Assembly: GCA_018902845.1 (NCBI GenBank)
Contig: JAHIPV010000013.1
Location: 18,766 to 82,765 of the forward strand
Direction: 5' to 3'
Source: Patescibacteria group bacterium
GTDB lineage: Bacteria; Patescibacteriota; Microgenomatia; UBA12405
DNA: 64,000 bases
The notes below the pieces were generated by a model. That model was given only the letters and a program-made list of their open reading frames with translations, was not told the DNA's origin and searched no databases. Position 1 is the stretch's first letter; the number at the start of each line of letters is the position of its first letter. Below, in pieces: positions 3,104 to 63,563 of the stretch. The position numbers and the translations under genes were made by a program.

Positions 3104-3154
3104 GTCATCCCGAGCGTAGTCCTTTTGTCATCCCGAGCGTAGCCGAGGGATCTC
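3104..3154. repeat. Dispersed repeat family A, two tandem copies (gtcatcccgagcgtag.. x2) plus hairpin ctcgc-gaat-gcgag
   Basis: gtcatcccgagcgtagtccttttgtcatcccgagcgtagccgagggatctc; same core as copies at 359, 42227, 46392, 49318, 50457, 53293, 54450. Confidence 0.7.
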
Positions 3155-3182
3155 TCGCGAATGCGAGGTATCCGCCTCGTCT

Positions 3183-3216: not shown

Positions 3217-3705
3217 ATGCCTACTGGAAAATTTAATGAAGGAAACTGTGTTTTTAGAGCCTTGGAAAATATTTATGAAAATGCGGGACACAACATGGAG
3301 CCAAGAAGTAGTATGCGAACTATCTTAATTCAGGTTTGTCAAAGAAATGTAGGCCCAAATGGCGGTGTCTCAGCGGGGAACGTTACAGTAGAACTTTCAG
3401 AACAAGGATTGACGGTTGGGCCGGTATATGTTCGAGAGTATAAACCCGAAAAACGAAAATGCAAAAAAACAATAGCCCTACAATTACGCCAAGATTTAGC
3501 CAAAGGAGCTCACTTGATGATTACACTAGTACACCCCAAAGGTCCAGTGGGACACGCAGAGCCATTATTTCCATCTGGTGGTCTACTGCCTAGAGATAAA
3601 AGAGAAACAATAAGAATGGCGGCCATGTCACTTAGAAAATATGGAGGTGAAGCACTTTCTTTTCGTCCAATCCAACCCGAAAAAGGAGAAAAGAAGAAAA
3701 GATAA
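3217..3705 (+). CDS. Hypothetical protein (162 aa, Gly/Pro/Arg/Lys-rich), slightly higher GC than surroundings
   Basis: Intact ORF preceded by a consensus promoter. No family recognised. Composition differs from flanking genes. Confidence 0.4.
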   Translation: MPTGKFNEGNCVFRALENIYENAGHNMEPRSSMRTILIQVCQRNVGPNGGVSAGNVTVELSEQGLTVGPVYVREYKPEKRKCKKTIALQLRQDLAKGAHLMITLVHPKGPVGHAEPLFPSGGLLPRDKRETIRMAAMSLRKYGGEALSFRPIQPEKGEKKKR

Positions 3706-3726
3706 AAATAAGCTATACTTTTCTTA

Positions 3727-4788
3727 ATGCCTACTACTAACTCCGAAATAACTCAAGCCATAGAAACACTAGTTGCCAAAACAAAAAGCATCAGGCTCCC
3801 CGACGAGTTACAGAACAAATTAAACGAAATTTTTTCTCACTTAAAAATTTCTTCCAAATCAGAAGACACTTTTTGGCAAAATTATCAAAAAACCTCCAAA
3901 TACATTGAGTGGATTATTGGCCTCCCTTGGTTTAAAGAATCTCAGGATATATTGGATCTTGATTATGCCAGAGAAAAACTTGATGAAAGCCATTACGGCC
4001 TTTCTGAAGTCAAAGAAAGAATACTGGAGCATATTTCTGTTTTGGCTTTGCAAAAAAACCGCCATCCCGATCAAAATCTTCGAGCCCCAATTTTACTTTT
4101 TGTCGGTTTGGTCGGTACAGGCAAAACCACCATGGCTAAGTCCATCGCCACTGTTTTTAACAGAAAATTAATCCGTATTCCCTTTGGAGGCCTTGGAGAT
4201 CCCCTTTACTTAAGGGGCCAATCGCGAGTTCATCCAGAAGCAGAACCAGGCCAAATCATAAAAGGATTAAGAAACGTTGGTGTCAAAAATCCGGTTATTC
4301 TTTTAGACGAAATCGACCGTGTTGCCGACGACGCCTTAAATACCATCATGGGGGTTTTGGTTGAGTTGTTGGATCCTGAACAAAATAGCCGTTTTTCAGA
4401 TCATTTTATTGAATATCCCTTTGATTTATCTCAGGTCTTTTTTGTTGCCACTTGCAATAACACAAAAAGAATTGCCACTGCCGTTTTGGACAGATTAGAA
4501 GTAATTCAAATGCCTTCTTACACTGATGAAGAAAAAATTGCCATTGGTCGCGATTATCTCTTCCCATCTGCCCTTAAAGAATCTGGTCTGAGTAATGATG
4601 AATTGCAAATAAAAGATGCTATCTGGCCTCAAGTGGTTCGCCCTCTTGGCTTTGATGCCGGAGTCAGAACCCTAAAAAGAAACATAGAACGCCTTTGCCA
4701 AAAAACCGCTCGTCTTATATTTGAAGGTAAAATTAAGTCGTTGGTAGTAGATGAATCTAATGTCAAGGAATTCCTACCCAAATGGTAA
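3727..4788 (+). CDS. Lon-family AAA+ ATPase module only (no N-terminal LAN domain, no C-terminal S16 peptidase domain)
   Basis: Matches Lon from the ILDEDHYGL(E/S)xVKERILE segment through Walker A (GLVGTGKTT), Walker B (ILLDEIDR), VLELLDPEQNSRFSDHF, sensor-1 (VATCNN), LDRLEVIQMPSYTDEEK and the GVR sensor-2. ORF ends at the Lon ATPase/protease boundary. Confidence 0.8.
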   Translation: MPTTNSEITQAIETLVAKTKSIRLPDELQNKLNEIFSHLKISSKSEDTFWQNYQKTSKYIEWIIGLPWFKESQDILDLDYAREKLDESHYGLSEVKERILEHISVLALQKNRHPDQNLRAPILLFVGLVGTGKTTMAKSIATVFNRKLIRIPFGGLGDPLYLRGQSRVHPEAEPGQIIKGLRNVGVKNPVILLDEIDRVADDALNTIMGVLVELLDPEQNSRFSDHFIEYPFDLSQVFFVATCNNTKRIATAVLDRLEVIQMPSYTDEEKIAIGRDYLFPSALKESGLSNDELQIKDAIWPQVVRPLGFDAGVRTLKRNIERLCQKTARLIFEGKIKSLVVDESNVKEFLPKW

Positions 4789-15033: not shown

Positions 15034-15194
15034 ACCTATAACATCATTATAATACAAATCGAACAGCAGCTCAAGCACTGGCTAGATTTGTTTTGTTTTA
15101 GATACTTTTTTGTCTCTCGTAATAATATAGCAGGATTATTTGGAAGTTTAGATATTAGATTTCAAATCTACTTACAATGTTGTATTCTTAATTA

Positions 15195-39097: not shown

Positions 39098-39117
39098 CAA
39101 TTATTTATAAATTATTT

Positions 39118-39149
39118 GGAAATTTAGATTTTAAATTTTAGATTTAATT
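39118..39149. repeat. Dispersed repeat family B copy 1 (ggaaatttagattttaaattttagatttaatt), ends 3 nt before rpsC ATG
   Basis: Near-identical copies at 41999, 49410, 59613. Confidence 0.7.
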
Positions 39150-39152
39150 AAT

Positions 39153-40208: not shown

Positions 40209-40460
40209 ATGATCAAAAAAACGGATAAAATCGCTTACCGACAAAAAAGCATCGAACAACTAAAAGCCGAATTGCTGTTAATTAGAAAAAAATTAGCCCA
40301 AGACTGTTTCAAACTTTCCATGGGGCAAATAAAAGACACTTCGGTCATAAAAAAATCAAAATATATGATATCTTTCATTTCAACATTAATTAATGAAAGC
40401 AAGCCAAAGCGCAGTCCGCCTCTGGAGGAGGAATCTACAAAAAACAATGACAACAAATAA
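40209..40460 (+). CDS. rpmC: 50S ribosomal protein L29
   Basis: Position and L29-like helical sequence (SIEQLKAELLLIRKKLAQDCFKLSMGQ). Confidence 0.8.
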   Translation: MIKKTDKIAYRQKSIEQLKAELLLIRKKLAQDCFKLSMGQIKDTSVIKKSKYMISFISTLINESKPKRSPPLEEESTKNNDNK

Positions 40461-41438: not shown

Positions 41439-41990
41439 ATGCTAAAACAACAATTTAAACAAAAAATTCAAAAAGAACTTTGGCAAAAGTTAAACAAAGG
41501 CAATATTAATGCCGTACCCATGCTTCAAAAAGTAGTCATTAATTGTCGAGTACAGGGAGCCAAAGAAAATAAAGAAATTCTTGAGCTGGCGGGAGTCGAA
41601 TTAATGGCCCTAACAGGGCAAAAACCAAAACTTTGTTGTGCCAAAAAATCAGAGGCCAGTTTCAAATTAAGAGAGGGCGACCCCTTAGCACTCAAAATTA
41701 CATTGCGAAGTGGCAAAATGTATGATTTTGTCGAAAAATTATTCAACCTGGTTTTACCAAGATTAAGGGATTTTCGTGGCTTATCGGCCAATTCATTTGA
41801 CAATGGGGCCAATTACAATCTTGTTATAAAAGATCAAACATATTTTCCTGAAATTAACCTTGACAAAGTTAAGCAAATTAGATCGGTTCAGGTGACCCTC
41901 GTTACCAGCACCTCTTCAAAAGAGGAGGCAAAAATGTTATTATCCGCCCTAGGCTTACCATTTAAAAAAGAAGACAAAGAAAGTAATTAA
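41439..41990 (+). CDS. rplE: 50S ribosomal protein L5
   Basis: ..RLRDFRGLSANSFDNGANYNLVIKDQTYFPEI.. L5 signature. Confidence 0.93.
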   Translation: MLKQQFKQKIQKELWQKLNKGNINAVPMLQKVVINCRVQGAKENKEILELAGVELMALTGQKPKLCCAKKSEASFKLREGDPLALKITLRSGKMYDFVEKLFNLVLPRLRDFRGLSANSFDNGANYNLVIKDQTYFPEINLDKVKQIRSVQVTLVTSTSSKEEAKMLLSALGLPFKKEDKESN

Positions 41991-41998
41991 TTTTATTT

Positions 41999-42029
41999 GG
42001 AAATTTAGATTTTAAATTTGTGATTTATC
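41999..42029. repeat. Dispersed repeat family B copy 2, ends 3 nt before rpsN ATG
   Basis: ggaaatttagattttaaatttgtgatttatc. Confidence 0.7.
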
Positions 42030-42032
42030 AAT

Positions 42033-42218: not shown

Positions 42219-42226
42219 CAAAATCC

Positions 42227-42262
42227 GTCATCCTGAGCTTGCCGAAGGATCCCGTCGGAATT
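42227..42262. repeat. Dispersed repeat family A copy (cgtcatcctgagcttgccgaaggatcccgtcggaatt), followed by an (AAAAATT)n tract at 42262-42300
   Basis: Nearly identical to the copy embedded in the 3' end of rplM (50457-50484). Confidence 0.7.
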
Positions 42263-46384: not shown

Positions 46385-46391
46385 CTATCTC

Positions 46392-46461
46392 GTCATTCTG
46401 AACAAAGTGAAGAATCCCAACGGGATCCTTCGTCCAATTGATCGGACTCAGGATGACGACA
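46392..46461. repeat. Dispersed repeat family A copy with inverted terminal half (gtcattctgaacaaagtgaagaatcccaacgggatccttcgtcc ... ggactcaggatgacgac)
   Basis: 5' half nearly identical to copy at 359-383. 3' end carries the reverse complement of the GTCATCCTGAG core. Confidence 0.7.
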
Positions 46462-48355: not shown

Positions 48356-49276
48356 ATGATTGATACAAGCAAATTTAATATGAAAACGGTTAAACTGGAC
48401 GCAAAGTATGGGAAATTCCAACTAAGTCCTCTCTACAAGGGTTTTGGCCACACCATAGGCAATAGCATTAGGAGAATACTTCTAATCACCATTCCCGGCA
48501 GTGCTATTACCAAAATTAAAGTCGCGGGTGCCAATCATCTTTTTACTACTCTAGATGGAATAAAAGAAGATTTGGTTGACATTTCCCTTAACCTCAAAAA
48601 AATCAAGTTCATATATAACAAAAACGAACCAACGGTACTCAAATTATCAAAAAGCGGTAAGTCTATTGTCACCGCCGCAGATATAGCTGATACTGATACT
48701 TGTAAAGTTTCCAACCCAGAACAGCATATTGCCACTCTAACAAATTCAAAAGCCAGTTTAGACATTGAGCTGACTGTTGAAAGAGGCATTGGTTTTACTC
48801 TTGCCAAAGAGCAAGAAAGTGAAATCGTAGGAGAAATTATCCTGGATGCTACCTTTACTCCGGTTTTAAGGTCCAACTATTCGGTTGAGTCAATTCGCTT
48901 AGGCAAAAAAAATGATTTTGACAAACTGACCATGGAAATATGGACTGATGGTTCTATAGACCCAAAGGAAGCGCTTAAAAGAGCCACCAAGGACCTAATC
49001 GTTTCCCTGTCTCAAATCGTTGACCCAAAAGAGTTTGAGGAAGAAGAAATTGTTACCATCGGATCTAATTTAAACATCTTCAACACTGATGTGTCGGTAG
49101 AAGAAATAGAATTACCACTAAGAGTAACTAATGCCTTGAAAAAGGCTGGTTTCCAAACCGTAGAAAGCCTAATACAAAATGGCAGTTCTGAAGTTAAAAA
49201 AGCCAAAAATGTAGGAGAAAAATCAATCAAAACCATTAATGATTGGCTCAAAGAAAAAGGAGTCGATTGGAAGTAA
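48356..49276 (+). CDS. rpoA: DNA-directed RNA polymerase subunit alpha
   Basis: N-terminal dimerisation domain and alpha-CTD (IEELELPLRVTNALKKAGFQTVESL). Confidence 0.93.
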   Translation: MIDTSKFNMKTVKLDAKYGKFQLSPLYKGFGHTIGNSIRRILLITIPGSAITKIKVAGANHLFTTLDGIKEDLVDISLNLKKIKFIYNKNEPTVLKLSKSGKSIVTAADIADTDTCKVSNPEQHIATLTNSKASLDIELTVERGIGFTLAKEQESEIVGEIILDATFTPVLRSNYSVESIRLGKKNDFDKLTMEIWTDGSIDPKEALKRATKDLIVSLSQIVDPKEFEEEEIVTIGSNLNIFNTDVSVEEIELPLRVTNALKKAGFQTVESLIQNGSSEVKKAKNVGEKSIKTINDWLKEKGVDWK

Positions 49277-49317
49277 CTTCTATAACTCATCAAAGTGAGA
49301 TTCAGTTAGAAAACACC

Positions 49318-49356
49318 CGTCATCCCGAGCGCGGTCGAGGGATCCCGTGGGGAATT
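49318..49356. repeat. Dispersed repeat family A copy (cgtcatcccgagcgcggtcgagggatcccgtggggaatt), followed by AT-heptamer tract and a family-B copy
   Basis: Composite 167-bp rpoA-rplQ spacer. Confidence 0.7.
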
Positions 49357-49409
49357 GTAAAAATTTATTAAAAATTAAAAATTAGAGATTAAAAAAGTTT
49401 AAAAATTTT

Positions 49410-49441
49410 GGAAATTTAGATTTTAAATTTTGAATTTAATT
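49410..49441. repeat. Dispersed repeat family B copy 3, ends 2 nt before rplQ ATG
   Basis: ggaaatttagattttaaattttgaatttaatt. Confidence 0.7.
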
Positions 49442-49443
49442 AT

Positions 49444-50028
49444 ATGCGTCATCGAAAATTCGGCAAAAAACTAGGAAGAAATCATCATCAACGAAAAGCT
49501 TTACTCAAAAGTTTGGTTAGGGCTGTTTTTACTCATGGTAGTATTAATACCACCATGGCAAAGGCAGAGGCAGTCTCTCCCTTAATAGAAAAAATCTGCA
49601 CTAGAATAAAAAAAGCAGACTTAAGTAGCAAAAGATATCTATATAGATATCTTCAGGACAGAAAATGGGTAAAAATAGTTGAGGAAGCTTTTTTAAAAGT
49701 TTTTCCGGACAGAAATTCAAATTTCCTAAAAATTTCTAAAGTTAAAAAAAGACAAGGAGACGATGCCACAATAGTTAACTTAGCTTTTGTCAAAACTGTT
49801 TCTTTTAATGTAGGGGAGACCCTTGCGGTCGCCCGCAAAAAAACAAAAGAAAGCTTAAGTTCAAAAAATTTATTAGGGCTCAAAAACAAGCTAAAGCGCA
49901 GTTCGTTTCAGGCAAAACAAAAGCAACAATCGTCTGTAGGAACAACTTTTGCAGTCGCTCGCAAAAATATAAAAATGAAAAAGAAAACAAGTCAGAGCGA
50001 ACTTACTCGAAGGGGAAAATCTAAATGA
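49444..50028 (+). CDS. rplQ: 50S ribosomal protein L17 with 76-aa C-terminal extension built from two copies of repeat family C
   Basis: L17 core in aa 1-118 (MRHRKFGKKLGRNHHQRKALLKSLV..). Extension contains in-frame gtaggggagacccttgcggtcgcccgcaaaaaaac (49810-49844) and gtaggaacaacttttgcagtcgctcgcaaaaatataaaaatg (49936-49977). Confidence 0.88.
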   Translation: MRHRKFGKKLGRNHHQRKALLKSLVRAVFTHGSINTTMAKAEAVSPLIEKICTRIKKADLSSKRYLYRYLQDRKWVKIVEEAFLKVFPDRNSNFLKISKVKKRQGDDATIVNLAFVKTVSFNVGETLAVARKKTKESLSSKNLLGLKNKLKRSSFQAKQKQQSSVGTTFAVARKNIKMKKKTSQSELTRRGKSK

Positions 50029-50492
50029 AAAAGATAACAACCATAAAACCAATAAAAGACATCAAAAGATATTGGCATTTCATCGACCTAGAAGGCCAAA
50101 CTCTTGGTCGCATTAGCACAAAAATTGCCAAACTTTTAACCGGAAAGGATAAGGTCCAATTTTGTTATCATCACGATTGGGGAGATTATGTCATCGCTGT
50201 TAATTCTAATAAAATAAAAACTACAGGTAAAAAGCTAAAAGACAAAATTTATTATCGTCATTCTGGTTACGCTGGCAATTTAAAAGAAATTCAATTAAAA
50301 GACTTGATGAAAAAAGATTCCAGAAAAGTTATTTATGCATCGGTTTATGGAATGGTAGCCAAAAACAAATTACGAAAACCAAGAATGCGAAGATTAAAAA
50401 TCTTTAAAACCGCAGATCATCCTTATCAAGGCAAGCTTAAAGGTTTATCTCCCAAGCGTCATCCTGAGCTTGCCGAAGGATCACAAAAATAA
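50025..50492 (+). CDS. rplM: 50S ribosomal protein L13 with C-terminal tail encoded by a repeat-A copy
   Basis: L13 core (..YWHFIDLEGQTLGRISTKIAKLL.GK..). Last 12 codons (KRHPELAEGSQK) are the in-frame repeat cgtcatcctgagcttgccgaaggatcac at 50457-50484. Confidence 0.9.
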   Translation: MKKITTIKPIKDIKRYWHFIDLEGQTLGRISTKIAKLLTGKDKVQFCYHHDWGDYVIAVNSNKIKTTGKKLKDKIYYRHSGYAGNLKEIQLKDLMKKDSRKVIYASVYGMVAKNKLRKPRMRRLKIFKTADHPYQGKLKGLSPKRHPELAEGSQK

Positions 50493-53292: not shown

Positions 53293-53367
53293 CATCCTGA
53301 GTTTTCACCGTCATCCTGAGTGATCCGCCAACTGGCGGAGACCGAAGGATCCCGTCGGATTTTCCCC
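53293..53367. repeat. Repeat family A cluster (partial copy catcctgag + full copy with internal hairpin ccgcca-ac-tggcgg)
   Basis: agcatcctgagttttcaccgtcatcctgagtgatccgccaactggcggagaccgaaggatcccgtcgg. Confidence 0.7.
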
Positions 53368-53401: not shown

Positions 53402-54442
53402 ATGTCCTTAACTCATACTGCCTACAGTACTAGAAAACTAATTAAATTTGGCGGACTAGGTATTATTCTTTTTTCTTTTGCCTGGTCTTTTCTTGTCACC
53501 GGAATCAAAGCTTATCGCAAGGCCCATCCGCCCAAGCTCCCTCCAACAGTTCGTTTTGGTAAACTGCCACCAATCACTTTTCCGTCAAAAAAAATAGAAA
53601 AGAAAGATTTTGTTTTAGAATTAGCTGATGATAAATTTTCAGAATTTCCCGATTCCGCTAAGGTTTATGTAGTCTATCGACCCACCAGTACTATCTTAGC
53701 TCTAGAAGAAGATACAAAAACAGCCAGAAGTCTTGGTTTTGTAACTCAGCCTATAAAAATTAACGACGGAGTTTACCAATTTCAAAACACTACTTTTAAA
53801 AAAACATTAACCATGAATATCTTAGATGGCAGTTTCAAGCTGGAATATCCATACAAAAAAGACCAAACCTTACAAGGTTCTGGAAAACTTCCCGACAAAA
53901 ACCAAGCCATTGATACGGCCAAAGCCTTTTTGAGAACAGCCGGAAAACTCGGTCCAGATCTTGAGACCGGAGAACAAACTATCACTTTTTGGAAAATAAG
54001 TTTTGATGGTCTTCATTCAGTTTTATCCCATTCAGAAGCCAATGCCATAAGAGTAGATTTTTTAAGAGAAAACCCAGAAAAAGATATGAAAATTTATTCC
54101 ACTAAGCCCGATAAGTCTTCAGTATCGGTCCTGGTCAGCAATTCAGCGGTTGAAAACAAAAGGATTATAGATGTTGATTACAAATATTCCCCGATTGATC
54201 GTGAATCTTTTTCTACTTACCCCATCAAATCGGCCATCCAGGCATGGGAAGAATTAAAAGCAGGTGATTATTGGCCGGCCATACAAGACTCTTCTGCCAC
54301 CGTCTCCATTCGCAATGTTAATTTGGCCTATTTTGAGCCCAGTAGTTTAACTAATTACATGCAACCAATCTTTGTATTTACTGGCGATAACGATTTTACC
54401 GCTTATGTTCCGGCTATATCTTCATCCTGGATTTCAGAATAA
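53402..54442 (+). CDS. Hypothetical membrane-anchored protein (346 aa, N-terminal TM, large extracytoplasmic region)
   Basis: Single N-terminal hydrophobic segment (LGIILFSFAWSFLV). No recognisable family. Confidence 0.55.
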   Translation: MSLTHTAYSTRKLIKFGGLGIILFSFAWSFLVTGIKAYRKAHPPKLPPTVRFGKLPPITFPSKKIEKKDFVLELADDKFSEFPDSAKVYVVYRPTSTILALEEDTKTARSLGFVTQPIKINDGVYQFQNTTFKKTLTMNILDGSFKLEYPYKKDQTLQGSGKLPDKNQAIDTAKAFLRTAGKLGPDLETGEQTITFWKISFDGLHSVLSHSEANAIRVDFLRENPEKDMKIYSTKPDKSSVSVLVSNSAVENKRIIDVDYKYSPIDRESFSTYPIKSAIQAWEELKAGDYWPAIQDSSATVSIRNVNLAYFEPSSLTNYMQPIFVFTGDNDFTAYVPAISSSWISE

Positions 54443-54449
54443 TCTATCT

Positions 54450-54588
54450 GTCATCCCGAGCGCAGTCGAGGGATCTCCCCGGAATTTAAACTTCCATTTG
54501 GGATTCTTCTCCGCCAACTGGCGGATCAGAATGACGCCTTTCTCCCACCCGTCATCCTGAGTGAGTTTTACGACCGAAGGATCCCATC
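54450..54588. repeat. Repeat family A cluster: forward copy, inverted half-copy (ggcggatcagaatgacgcc) and second forward copy, with ccgccaactggcgg hairpin
   Basis: gtcatcccgagcgcagtcgagggatctcc ... ccgccaactggcggatcagaatgacg ... cgtcatcctgagtgagttttacgaccgaaggatcccatc. Confidence 0.7.
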
Positions 54589-59537: not shown

Positions 59538-59612
59538 TTACTCATTCTATCAACTTATGATTTTAAAATGTTTGTCAGTAATGACAATATTAAATAATTT
59601 TGGGTTTAATTT

Positions 59613-59643
59613 GGAAATTTAGATTTTTGATTTCAGATTTATC
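59613..59643. repeat. Dispersed repeat family B copy 4 in the recJ / RRM-gene divergent spacer
   Basis: ggaaatttagatttttgatttcagatttatc. Confidence 0.6.
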
Positions 59644-59819
59644 TTCTCATTGCTTTTCCTTTTCGTTCTGTTATACTTAACCCCAGAACTCAGATACATA
59701 GTTATTTTAACTGGGTTCTGTTATAAGGATTCATTTTTAAACTGTAGTATCAAGAAATTTCCTTTTTTGTTTCTCTGTTATTTTGCGTCCTTAATTTATA
59801 AGTTCAAAAGTAAAAAAAA

Positions 59820-60363: not shown

Positions 60364-61725
60364 ATGTTTCCTATCAAAAAAATACCAGTCAAGGTAATCA
60401 ATCTTGTCAAAAAGTTTGTTGACAATAATGCCGAAATTTACATTGTCGGCGGTTCTGTTCGTGATCTTTTTTTAAAACGATCAGTCAAAGACTGGGATTT
60501 TACCACCAATCTTACACCCAATCAAATGAAAAAACTTTTTCCCAAAAACAGTTTTTACAATAACCAATTTGGCACTTTCAGCATTGTTGGCAAAAACAAA
60601 GAAGTTTTTGAAGTAACTACTTACAGAAGCGAACAGTCTTACTCAGACTCCCGCCACCCCGACAAAGTTAAATGGGGAAAATCAATAAAACAGGATCTAA
60701 AAAGACGCGATTTTACCATTAACGCTATTGCTTTAAATTTAAATTTTAATAAATTAGGCAAAGTTATCGATTTTGAAGTTATCGATCCCTACAACGGCCA
60801 AAAAGATTTAGGAGATAAGTTAATCAGAACTGTCGGCAATCCGGACAACAGATTTTCAGAAGATGCTCTAAGGCTCATGCGTGCTATCAGAATCTGTTGT
60901 CAAATAGGCTTTTTATTAGAAGAAAAAACCTTTTCCTCAATTCAAAAAAAATCAAAACTGTTAAAAAAAATCGCTGTCGAAAGAATCCGCGACGAATTTT
61001 TCAAAGTTCTTGTATCAGATCACCCCGCCGATGGTATCAGATTATTAAAAAACTCTAAATTATTAAATATTATTATTCCTGAATTACTGGAAGGAATTGA
61101 TTTTGAACAAAAGGGCCACCATATTTATAGCGTTTGGGAACATAATCTAAGGACCCTACAAAACTGCCAAAGCAAAGACCCGGTCACCAGGTTAGCCGCC
61201 CTCTTGCACGACGTAGCCAAGCCAAAAACAGCTCACGGGGTAGGGCAGGCTCGCACTTTTCACAATCACGAAGTAGTTGGCTCTCGTATGGCCGTCAAAA
61301 TCGGCCAAAGGCTTCGTTTGTCAAACAGTCAACTAGACCAGCTTTTTAGGCTGACTCGCTGGCACATGTTTACTTGCGAAACCAAACAAACAGACAAAGC
61401 AGTCAGAAGATTTATAAGGAATGTGACACCGCAATATTTAGACGAAATGATAGCTCTTCGTCGGGGTGATCGGATTGGTTCCGGTGCCAAAGAAAGCTCT
61501 TGGCGCTGGGAATTATTTAAAAAACGTTTAATCGAAGTTCAAAAACAGCCTTTCAGAGTCATCGATCTAAAAATTAACGGCAATGATGTTATGAAGATTC
61601 TAAATATCAAACCTGGTCCTCAAATCGGTAAAATCCTAAATGCTATATTTAAACAAGTCGACCAAGATCCAAAACTGAACCAAAGAAAAATTTTATTAAA
61701 AAAAATAGGGGAATACGCCACCTGA
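60364..61725 (+). CDS. cca: tRNA nucleotidyltransferase (CCA-adding enzyme) with HD domain
   Basis: IYIVGGSVRDLFL..DWDF head motif, RDFTINA, HD-domain His/Asp cluster (HDVAKP.., HNHE). Confidence 0.85.
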   Translation: MFPIKKIPVKVINLVKKFVDNNAEIYIVGGSVRDLFLKRSVKDWDFTTNLTPNQMKKLFPKNSFYNNQFGTFSIVGKNKEVFEVTTYRSEQSYSDSRHPDKVKWGKSIKQDLKRRDFTINAIALNLNFNKLGKVIDFEVIDPYNGQKDLGDKLIRTVGNPDNRFSEDALRLMRAIRICCQIGFLLEEKTFSSIQKKSKLLKKIAVERIRDEFFKVLVSDHPADGIRLLKNSKLLNIIIPELLEGIDFEQKGHHIYSVWEHNLRTLQNCQSKDPVTRLAALLHDVAKPKTAHGVGQARTFHNHEVVGSRMAVKIGQRLRLSNSQLDQLFRLTRWHMFTCETKQTDKAVRRFIRNVTPQYLDEMIALRRGDRIGSGAKESSWRWELFKKRLIEVQKQPFRVIDLKINGNDVMKILNIKPGPQIGKILNAIFKQVDQDPKLNQRKILLKKIGEYAT

Positions 61726-61739
61726 CTTGTAGGGGCGAC

Positions 61740-61780
61740 CCTTGCGATCGCCCGCAAAATATAAAAATGTCAAACAACAA
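61740..61780. repeat. Repeat family C copy 3, overlapping the ABC-transporter start codon
   Basis: tgtaggggcgacccttgcgatcgcccgcaaaatataaaaatg. Its 5' half matches 49810-49844 and its 3' half (caaaaatataaaaatg) matches 49962-49977, both inside rplQ. Confidence 0.7.
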
Positions 61781-63563
61781 CAACAATCAAAAAAACAAAG
61801 ATTTTTTAAAAGCTATTTTTTGGATCTCCAAACTTGTTTACGGTCTTATTCCATACCTGCTTTTGACTTTGTTTGTCATGGAAATATTAACATCCATTTT
61901 CCCTTTTATAAGACAAAGACTTTTTTCACAATTAATTGACGATGTTATTGCTTTAAGCCAAAATAAAAATAATTTTTTAATAAAAACATTTTTAGCATTA
62001 TTTGTTGTCAGGATTACAATTTCTATAGTCAGTCGTCTCCAAACAATGTTTTATCAAACATTGGGAACTAAGCTCAGACATGAATTAAACAAACTTTTTC
62101 TAAAAAGAGTTTCAAACCTTGATTATCAGCATTTCGAAAACAAAGACTCAGCCAATTTAATAGCCAAAGTAAGTGAAGAATACAAATGGCGTATGCAAGA
62201 AGTCATAATCAACATACTTCGTTTAACAAGCCAAACTATCAGCCTGATTGCTATTTTTATTATTTTAGTTCCTCACTATTGGTTTTTGGTTTTGGTTCTT
62301 TTTGTTACCGAAATACCGGCCTATTTTATTAATCAAAAATGGCAAAAAATAGATTGGAAATTTTTTAATGACAATATAGAAAAAACTAGAAGTGGTTGGG
62401 ATATAGCCTGGCAATTAACAGAAAAAAGGTTTATCTCAGAACTAAAAATATCAAATTCTGTTAATTTTCTTCTAAATAAATTTAATCAAATTTTTGACAA
62501 ATTTATCATTGGCAGAATAAAAATCAAACAAAACAAAAACACATCTCAAATCCCCCTCATTTTTATCTCAAACTTGTCTGTTGCCTTTTGTATTTGGGTT
62601 TTACTAAAAGATATTCGATCCGGAAGCATTACCATAGGGCTTTTAACTTTTTATTACAACGCCGTTGGCCAAGTTGGTCAGAATTTTTCTGGCTTACTAA
62701 GAAGTTTTATTGATATTTCAGAACAAATTCCCTATGTTTTGGATTTCAAAAAAATAATAGAACTGCCCCATATTGTCAAAAATGGACAAAAGAAAACTGG
62801 CTTAAAAAAAACTCCCTTAATAGAATTTAAAAATATATCTTTTAAATATCCAAATTCAGACGACTACATTTTCAAAAATTTAAATCTAACCATAAAAGCA
62901 AACGAGGAAATTGCCATAGTCGGTATCAATGGCGCCGGCAAAAGCACGCTAATAAAACTCTTGTGTCGTTTTTATGATCCTCAATCGGGGCAAATTTTAC
63001 TAAATGGTATTGACATAAAAAAATTCGACCTAAGTTATTGGTACAAACAACTTTCCGTCCTCTTTCAGGAATTTAATATCTATCAAAACCTGACCCTGAA
63101 AGACAATATAATAATAGGCAAACCAAATTCTATAATTACCAGGCAAAAAATCATTTCTTCACTCAAAAAATCAGAAGCCTATAATTTTATCAAGGAATAC
63201 AAAAATGGTTTAAATACCATGATGGGTCAGCGCTATGGAGGCAAAGAACCGAGTTGGGGTCAATGGCAAAAAATAGCTATTGCCAGGATTTTTTATTCTG
63301 ATACACCGGTTCTTGTTCTTGACGAACCAACCGCTTCTATAGATGCTACCTCGGAACACAAAATTTTTGATCGTCTTTACAAACAGACAAAAAACAAAAC
63401 TCTCATAATAGTTTCTCATCGCTTTTCCACTGTCAGAAACGCCCAAAGAATAATCGTTATAGACAAAGGTAAAATAATGGAGCAGGGGACTCACAAAGAA
63501 TTAATAAAACTAAAAGGACTCTACGCCAAATCTTTCAAACTCCAAGCCCAAGGCTACAATTAA
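61767..63563 (+). CDS. ABC transporter, fused permease/ATPase (exporter type) with degenerate signature motif
   Basis: 6 TM region, Walker A GINGAGKST, Walker B LVLDEPTASID, H-loop SHR. Signature LSGGQ replaced by PSWGQWQKIAIAR. Confidence 0.85.
   Translation: MSNNNNNQKNKDFLKAIFWISKLVYGLIPYLLLTLFVMEILTSIFPFIRQRLFSQLIDDVIALSQNKNNFLIKTFLALFVVRITISIVSRLQTMFYQTLGTKLRHELNKLFLKRVSNLDYQHFENKDSANLIAKVSEEYKWRMQEVIINILRLTSQTISLIAIFIILVPHYWFLVLVLFVTEIPAYFINQKWQKIDWKFFNDNIEKTRSGWDIAWQLTEKRFISELKISNSVNFLLNKFNQIFDKFIIGRIKIKQNKNTSQIPLIFISNLSVAFCIWVLLKDIRSGSITIGLLTFYYNAVGQVGQNFSGLLRSFIDISEQIPYVLDFKKIIELPHIVKNGQKKTGLKKTPLIEFKNISFKYPNSDDYIFKNLNLTIKANEEIAIVGINGAGKSTLIKLLCRFYDPQSGQILLNGIDIKKFDLSYWYKQLSVLFQEFNIYQNLTLKDNIIIGKPNSIITRQKIISSLKKSEAYNFIKEYKNGLNTMMGQRYGGKEPSWGQWQKIAIARIFYSDTPVLVLDEPTASIDATSEHKIFDRLYKQTKNKTLIIVSHRFSTVRNAQRIIVIDKGKIMEQGTHKELIKLKGLYAKSFKLQAQGYN

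Follow-up and report, generated by a model that had tools for sequence, protein, structure and literature searches.

A probable GTAG-headed REP element in the ribosomal protein L17 tail of a Patescibacteria genome

A 64-kb stretch of Patescibacteria DNA (the window; GC content ~36%) carries three copies of a short repeat, here called family C. Copies A and B lie in rplQ, the gene for ribosomal protein L17, and copy C lies between cca and an ABC exporter gene. Family C is probably a GTAG-headed repetitive extragenic palindromic (REP) element, copies of which are now part of a pre-existing, unstructured C-terminal tail of L17, while the start codon of the ABC exporter was not supplied by the repeat. 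The analysis reveals neither a new kind of element nor a new mechanism of translation start. The best matches of the L17 and ABC-transporter proteins of the window are records labelled 'Patescibacteria group bacterium' and Candidatus Shapirobacteria.

Results

Three copies of a GTAG-headed hairpin

The consensus of family C reads, in order, GTAG, GGGCGACC, CTTGC, GGTCGCCC and GCAAAA. This is the anatomy of a REP: a 25-nt core (31 nt with GCAAAA) in which an 8-bp GC stem, GGGCGACC/GGTCGCCC, encloses a 5-nt loop, preceded by a GTAG head that stands at the start of all copies and is unpaired in the consensus fold. Copy A (49810–49840, + strand; GTAGGGGAGACCCTTGCGGTCGCCCGCAAAA) is read as VGETLAVARK and has one mismatch to the consensus (C8A). 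Copy C (61729–61759, + strand; GTAGGGGCGACCCTTGCGATCGCCCGCAAAA) is intergenic and begins 3 nt past the cca stop codon. It is also one base off the consensus, and A and C are identical at 29 of 31 positions. These two are the only exact matches in the window to the 31-nt pattern made from the two good copies, and shuffled sequences gave none. At a tolerance of up to 8 mismatches, the hits of the 25-nt consensus GTAGGGGCGACCCTTGCGGTCGCCC in the window were A (1 mismatch), C (1), copy B at 49936–49960 (7) and palindromic self-hits on the reverse strand, with no fourth copy.

Copy B (49936–49974, + strand) consists of a decayed repeat, GTAGGAACAACTTTTGCAGTCGCTCGCAAAA (49936–49966), followed by the A/T tail ATATAAAA. 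All seven of its differences from the consensus are GC-to-AT transitions (G to A or C to T), and the consensus C at position 24 persists in a 97%-identical relative (locus L004). Because of these transitions and the original base retained in L004, copy B appears to be decaying from the consensus.

A sequence-only reading of this DNA had aligned two repeats in rplQ with a third one further downstream. The alignment holds base by base, and the two rplQ copies are real and share one frame (49810–49840 and 49936–49966, translated as VGETLAVARKK and VGTTFAVARKN). The third copy, which had been placed at 61740–61780, does exist between genes, but its true position is ~11 nt lower, at 61729–61769. 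The GC palindrome described in the same reading is likewise present, as GGGCGACC/GGTCGCCC around the loop CTTGC. The 'gcgatcgc' quoted for it, however, results from a G-to-A change private to the window (G19A, the single change in copy C), where the closest relatives, L140 and L141, carry the perfect consensus and read GCGGTCGC. A HIP1-like palindrome was rejected as an identity for the element, as GCGATCGC occurs once in 64 kb and copy C of L140 and L141 lacks it.

The predicted RNA hairpin of the consensus has an energy of −17.3 kcal/mol (−10.4 kcal/mol when folded as DNA), compared with −12.7 for copy A, −10.6 for copy C and −3.8 for copy B. Such a stable consensus hairpin would fit a selected RNA structure that regulates or stabilises, be it an autoregulatory ribosomal protein operator in front of rplM, a protector of mRNA 3′ ends, an attenuator or a terminator. 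The position of copy C, just past the cca stop, is typical of REPs proposed to act on RNA (PMC3733652), and this copy is pristine in two relatives (L140 and L141). We nevertheless regard a selected RNA structure as highly improbable. The one stem change in each of copies A and C leaves a base unpaired, copy B has lost its hairpin through changes that are not compensated, and the folding z-scores are only −1.4 to −2.9. Locus L001, from a relative, is without both rplQ copies and keeps the operon layout. Scans of 49200–50200 and 61400–62000 found no hairpin with a T-run and no promoter-like site at the copies, and Rfam gave no match in the window at the gathering threshold, the sole sub-threshold match with E ≤ 1 being Yfr13 (E = 0.58), at chance level and elsewhere in rplQ. 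A promoter or terminator role was rejected on the empty scans, as was a known RNA family in view of the Rfam result at the copies.

Dispersal of the core and an associated transposase

A genome scan with the pattern GTAGGGGNGACCCTTGNGNTCGCCC, restricted to one genome per species, located the core at at least 118 loci (L005–L122) in at least ten phyla. The core (GTAGGGGCGACCCTTG, then C or T, then GGTCGCCC) is essentially invariant in 139 copies, and the flanks are unrelated. Its hosts belong to Chloroflexota, Clostridia and other Bacillota, Gamma- and Alphaproteobacteria, Acidobacteriota, Bacteroidota, Planctomycetota, Zixibacteria, Latescibacterota, Deinococcales, Armatimonadetes and Actinomycetes, and 27 viral contigs of IMG/VR (L146–L172) carry it as well. 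Patescibacteria are not represented among the genome loci listed. Inverted pairs tens of bases apart are frequent (e.g. L009, L029, L030, L084, L095 and L110), nearby hairpins are related by the same GTAGGGG head and a CTTGY loop, and in other phyla there are several copies per 8-kb locus. The element is mostly extragenic, because the stop-free runs upstream of it are short in all three frames (median ~20–25 codons across phyla). Across phyla, no frame preference was seen for the TAG stop within GTAG.

One of these loci, L106, belongs to a metagenome-assembled genome of the Sphingobacteriales and contains a 187-aa open reading frame (ORF) that matches NCBIfam NF047646, 'REP-associated tyrosine transposase' (RAYT), with 97.8 bits (cutoff 80), and Pfam Y1_Tnp too. 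The gene was first found with sequence probes and then confirmed by NCBIfam and Pfam. Within L106:2330–4020, the RAYT gene (3240–3752, minus strand) lies between an exact core and a variant GTAG REP; the two REPs are inverted and have inverted 25-nt flanks. This arrangement is a REPtron. When 1658 ORFs from the 118 cross-phylum loci were clustered all against all, the clusters held only generic paralogues and no recurrent neighbour gene. The literature search returned no paper with the exact core sequence, and the sequence is absent from the supplements of PMC3733652. With REP–RAYT systems usually being lineage-specific, the breadth of the 25-nt core is unexplained, and its invariance across phyla is the most striking side observation of this analysis.

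Copies inside genes of related low-GC contigs

A metagenome scan for the core plus GCAAAA yielded 15 loci, five of them at 34–42% GC. Among the copies examined, those from low-GC contigs and Patescibacteria have GCAAA after the core. The low-GC contigs L130, L132 and L136 share their project series with L002 and L141, and L136 also shares its metagenome with these two. Two copies lie in the 3.4-kb contig L136 and one each in the overlapping contigs L130 and L132.

Contig L136 encodes a GT4 glycosyltransferase (L136:2035–3240) with Glyco_transf_4 at aa 15–179 and Glycos_transf_1 at aa 205–368. A perfect family C copy is in frame in the interdomain linker of this protein, where it is read as CRGDPCGRPQ, and a CGTC-type repeat is in frame inside the Glycos_transf_1 domain, where it is read as CHPERSRGI. 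The GTAG head of the second family C copy in L136 forms the TAG stop codon of the same gene, and stop codons from a GTAG head are also found in L123 and L131. Three of the low-GC copies are intragenic. The element is open in two frames (VGATLAVARK or CRGDPCGRPQ), and the third frame stops translation. These contexts indicate that the element lands at or in gene ends.

The L17 tail and the copies within it

The coding sequence of rplQ (49444–50028, + strand) is an open frame of 194 aa, the stop of which overlaps the start of rplM (ATGA), the gene for L13 (50025–50492, + strand; Pfam Ribosomal_L13, E = 1.1e-40). Pfam Ribosomal_L17 covers aa 20–116 of the rplQ product (E = 7.8e-18), and a Lys/Ser-rich extension of 78 aa (aa 117–194; 49792–50025, + strand) runs past the end of the domain. 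In the AlphaFold2 model the predicted local distance difference test score is above 90 for aa 11–120 and 41–56 for aa 121–194; the tail thus has no confident predicted structure and is probably unstructured.

The mosaic of the tail begins with an ancestral linker (aa 117–122), followed by copy A (aa 123–133), a Lys/Ser-rich spacer common to L001 (aa 134–164), copy B with its tail (aa 165–177) and a fossil rplM start (aa 178–194). This fossil (49975–50027, + strand) goes back to a tandem duplication of the 5′ end of rplM and now forms the last 17 codons of L17 (MKKKTSQSELTRRGKSK and stop). These codons, from ATG 49975 to TAA 50026, align with the 5′ end of rplM in L001, which encodes MKTKTSKNEVTRRG; L13 of L001 begins MKTKTSKNEVTRRG-TTIKPIK. 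The duplication spans ~50 nt (window 49975–50027 against L001:3241–3300). One copy of it ends the L17 tail, and the second is retained in L001 as a 10-aa N-terminal extension of L13 and has been lost from the window. The extension had earlier been put at 76 aa and described as assembled from two copies of the repeat. It is real and contains both copies, but its length is 78 aa, counted from the end of the Pfam domain, and 'assembled' is overstated for a repeat that makes up ~24 of the 78 residues.

Among 22 aligned L17 homologues, four are tail-less (118–120 aa) and 14 have Lys-rich tails of ~25–45 aa. Long tails are found only in P0001 (97% identical; locus L004) and P0002 (64%; loci L001–L003), the L17 of L001 being 197 aa long. 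Copy A is present in L004 and absent from L001, which at this position has a Lys-rich segment of 86 nt against 44 nt in the window, a difference of 42 nt that keeps the frame. At copy B, L001 reads GTAGGA and then directly ATGAAAAAG, a clean 33-nt in-frame indel (49942–49974) that spans the rest of copy B and its A/T tail. Since GTAGGA persists in L001, with the decayed A at position 6, a deletion in L001 is favoured as the more economical, though unproven, reading of this indel.

The tail appears to be both older and larger than the repeats, because the L17 of L001 reaches 197 aa without copy A and most of copy B, and Lys-rich tails of 25–45 aa occur in more distant relatives. The idea that the extension arose by repeated insertion is therefore only partly borne out: copy A is missing in L001 and copy B coincides with a 33-nt indel, but the tail predates and exceeds the repeats. 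The suggested comparison of L17 lengths shows Lys-rich tails in 14 of 22 homologues and long tails in P0001 and P0002 only. An absorbed intergenic spacer, created by loss of the rplQ stop, was rejected as the source of the tail, as rplQ and rplM overlap in every locus examined, whatever the length of the tail.

A different account of these observations is that the extension is not translated at all, being an assembly or frameshift artefact or lying beyond an earlier stop or a recoding site, so that L17 has its normal length and the repeats are intergenic. The tail is without predicted structure, its 7 substitutions between the window and L004 are 5 nonsynonymous and 2 synonymous, and the support for its translation comes from sequence alone, all of which would suit this account. 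We consider it extremely improbable, because independent assemblies from two lineages (window and L004; L001–L003) all have the frame open, the indels in the tail and in L13 are all multiples of three (33, 42 and 30 nt), and 78 codons without a stop have a chance of 0.004 at the base composition of the window. The constant rplQ/rplM overlap, which leaves no spacer in any relative, and the frequency of 25–45-aa tails in the clade also speak against it.

In the comparison of window 48356–50492 with L004, identity is 100% across rpoA and the first 348 nt of rplQ and ~97% across the rplQ tail and rplM. This sharp change in divergence may be a recombination boundary near 49880.

Copy C and the start codon of the ABC exporter

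Upstream of copy C lies cca (60364–61725, + strand), which encodes the CCA-adding enzyme (Pfam PolyA_pol and related domains). Downstream, an A/T tail, TATAAAA, and the ATG of the ABC exporter occupy 61760–61769 (+ strand), and the exporter gene (61767–63563, + strand) encodes 598 aa with Pfam ABC_membrane and ABC_tran. It had been claimed that the element supplies this ATG. The Shapirobacteria relative L145, which has the same cca–ABC–secF–secD order, lacks the element, and its cca stop and ABC ATG are 1 nt apart, in ATATAAAATG / GAAGAAATATAAAATG. Relative to L145, the window has ~46 extra bases before ATATAAAAATG, namely TACGCCACCTGACTT, the REP and GCAAA. The exporter homologues are 590–600 aa long and have N-termini of equal length. 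Because the repeat-free junction of L145 has the ATG and the homologues share the length of the N-terminus, the ATG is ancestral and not repeat-supplied. Copy C was inserted just upstream of a pre-existing start, and the insertion replaced the last cca codons too. The related claim, that the element carries its own translation-start context, is not supported: none of six other independent copies in low-GC contigs precedes a start codon.

Copies B and C share the tail ATATAAAAATG, an 11-mer that occurs only at these two sites in 64 kb on both strands and is expected 0.15 times on the + strand from base composition. The shared tail is not due to chance. A start codon, existing or former, follows each of the two tailed copies at a distance of 8–9 nt. 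The earlier observation that copies end in a common tail before an ATG is accurate to this extent, the ATG after copy B being the fossil rplM start, but the ABC ATG owes nothing to the repeat.

The shared tail might indicate that family C is a portable gene-junction cassette, in which a mobile unit of the REP plus AAAATATAAAAATG brings a stop, a spacer and a start and inserts at, or makes, tight junctions. One additional A in the A-run of copy B would have abolished the stop, joining L17 to the former rplM start, and the ~50-nt duplication would have restored a separate rplM. In the GTA frame, the consensus unit reads VGATLAVARKI, TAA, AA-ATG, and the one extra A in copy B puts the TAA out of frame and the ATG in frame. 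Such a cassette would also agree with the restriction of ATATAAAAATG in the window to the sites after B and C, with the inclusion of the tail in the 33-nt indel relative to L001, with the fossil start after copy B and with a copy in L123 that shares GCAAAATAT with the tailed unit. However, the junction of L145 already reads ATATAAAATG without the repeat, so the tail looks ancestral at site C, and the ABC homologues start at one common position. Furthermore, copy A and the copies in L130, L131 and L136 (both) are without the TATAAAAATG tail and without a nearby start, the L123 copy opens no ORF, and at least 118 loci in other phyla have unrelated 3′ flanks. On balance, a cassette of this kind is unlikely.

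CGTC-type REPs and other repeats in the window

In rplM, a CGTC-headed REP (AAGCGTCATCCTGAGCTTGCCGAAGGATCA; 50454–50483, + strand) has been cleanly inserted two codons ahead of the stop. Its 30 nt keep the frame and give L13 the additional C-terminal residues KRHPELAEGS, which are missing in L001 and L138; in the window and in L004 the protein ends SPKRHPELAEGSQK. Another CGTC-headed REP lies in the rpoA–rplQ spacer (49309–49354, + strand), and further CGTC/TGTC-headed hairpins occur at 3117–3162, 42223–42262, 46388–46427, 53323–53362 and 54440–54485. These hairpins (families D3 and D5) have the pattern (C/T)GTCATCC[CT]GAGC...GA[AG]GGATC with an ATCC...GGAT stem. The CGTC/TGTC copies for which the context was inspected are in spacers or start at a stop codon.

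The 17-mer AGTCCGCCTCTGGAGGA is common to the C-terminal tail of L29 in the window (rpmC, 83 aa; 40413–40429) and the L17 tail of L001 (L001:3075–3091), and its 15-nt core TCCGCCTCTGGAGGA is also found in the loop of a CGTC-type REP at L141:4335–4375. Possibly it represents a further small repeat module able to enter ribosomal protein tails. A five-copy A/T-rich motif, TTTGGAAATTTAGATTTTAAATTT, is located at 15132–15174, 39108–39150, 41989–42031, 49400–49442 and 59603–59645. The copy at 49400–49442 ends directly before the rplQ start, and like strings follow REPs in L130 and L136; the motif may be a promoter or leader motif. At the window start, positions 74–157 hold two tandem 42-nt CCA/ACA-rich units that are 76% identical.

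Discussion

If family C is a REP, its copies would spread in the form of single-stranded hairpins, with a RAYT or another HUH enzyme of the IS200–IS605 type mobilising them in trans. Insertions would survive in the tails of L17 and L13 because these tails are surface-exposed and unstructured, and because two of the three frames of the element are without a stop. Only in-frame lengths, such as 33 and 30 nt, would keep the translationally coupled rplQ–rplM–rpsI junctions intact. Inside an ORF the hairpin would not be maintained and would be eroded by GC-to-AT changes, as in copy B, and the intergenic copy C may still form a functional RNA hairpin where the cca message ends.

Several observations weigh against this interpretation. 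Neither the window nor the related Patescibacteria contigs examined gave a RAYT in a tblastn search with a RAYT probe. The copies in the window are singletons, with A and B in direct orientation 126 nt apart and not in the inverted doublets of REPINs, and there are three of them in the 64 kb, which is all of the genome that was surveyed. A bare mobile unit of 25–31 nt does not explain the identical 11-nt tail of B and C. Relative to L001, copy A is a replacement and not a clean insertion. Translation of the L17 tail is argued from ORF conservation only, and its faster change could reflect a recombination boundary instead of relaxed constraint, because rplM is also 2.8% divergent from L004 while rpoA is identical.

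In a bolder version, the ends of essential genes in Patescibacteria would be under active remodelling by the REP family, with the tailed REP plus AAAATATAAAAATG acting as a portable stop–spacer–start junction and slips in the A-run fusing genes and forcing duplications. We find this distinctly doubtful. If it were true, a 'selfish' hairpin would be a source of new tails on proteins and new boundaries between genes in minimal genomes, its identity across phyla would point to a shared vector (e.g. phage) or a universal host factor that recognises the hairpin, and Patescibacteria genomes with remodelled ends might lack a cognate RAYT.

If our preferred interpretation as a REP holds, GTAG- and CGTC-type REPs, known mainly from Proteobacteria, Cyanobacteria, Chloroflexi and the PVC group, are also present in small Patescibacteria genomes. 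There they would enter coding sequence and provide peptide segments, as in L17, L13 and a glycosyltransferase, and sometimes stop codons. For annotation, REPs would explain odd GC-rich 'motifs' such as VGATLAVARK, CRGDPCGRPQ and RHPELAEGS/CHPERSRGI in proteins of these bacteria. For evolution, the copies would form a dated series from young to intact to eroded, which shows how disordered tails tolerate such insertions before these decay.

The closest known systems are the GTAG REPs and REPINs with their RAYT (TnpA_REP) (Di Nocera 2013, PMC3733652; Nunvar 2010, PMC2817692; Bertels & Rainey 2011, PMC3116915; Corneloup 2021, PMC8266576), which family C resembles in its GTAG head, GC-rich stem and 20–40-nt unit. 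GTAG REPs have an unpaired GTAG head, a 6–13-bp stem and a short loop, are dispersed just downstream of ORFs and frequently form dimers, and intragenic REPs that encode 10–30 residues have been reported (PMC3733652). Family C is similarly dispersed, mostly just past ORFs and sometimes within genes, and its core flanks a RAYT in L106. It differs from REPINs in that the copies in the window are not inverted dimers, and from the surveyed GTAG REPs in its host, a small, 36%-GC Patescibacteria genome; Patescibacteria are absent from the host lists of two REP surveys (PMC3733652 and PMC12306157), an absence that applies to these two surveys only. REP–RAYT pairs are described as usually lineage-specific and mostly vertically inherited (10.1101/2022.05.22.493013), unlike the 25-nt core of family C, which is identical across at least ten phyla.

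Two other known elements share single features with the repeat. The HIP1 octamer of cyanobacteria (GCGATCGC) is present in copy C, but it occurs once in the window and is not iterated. Like an intrinsic terminator, copy C is a GC-rich hairpin right after a stop codon, but it is followed by GCAAAAUAUAAAA and has no U-run.

The Rickettsia palindromic elements (RPEs), reportedly described by Ogata and colleagues in 2000, are alike in being palindromic repeats that lie in frame in coding genes of a reduced genome, where their translation yields additional peptide segments at tolerant surface positions. RPE-1 is 100–150 bp long, and the short RPE-4 and RPE-6 are CGTC-tagged. Family C is not an RPE: it is 25–31 nt long, GTAG-tagged, found in many phyla and without sequence relationship to RPEs, so that only in-frame insertion is shared. 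The CGTC-type copies in the window (e.g. in rplM) are nearer to the short RPE class than family C is. Short RPEs are related to the second, CGTC-tagged REP superfamily, which the CGTC/TGTC hairpins of the window match (PMC3733652). Intragenic REPs and RPEs are thus established precedents, and the copies in L17 are a clean example of this behaviour, not an unprecedented one.

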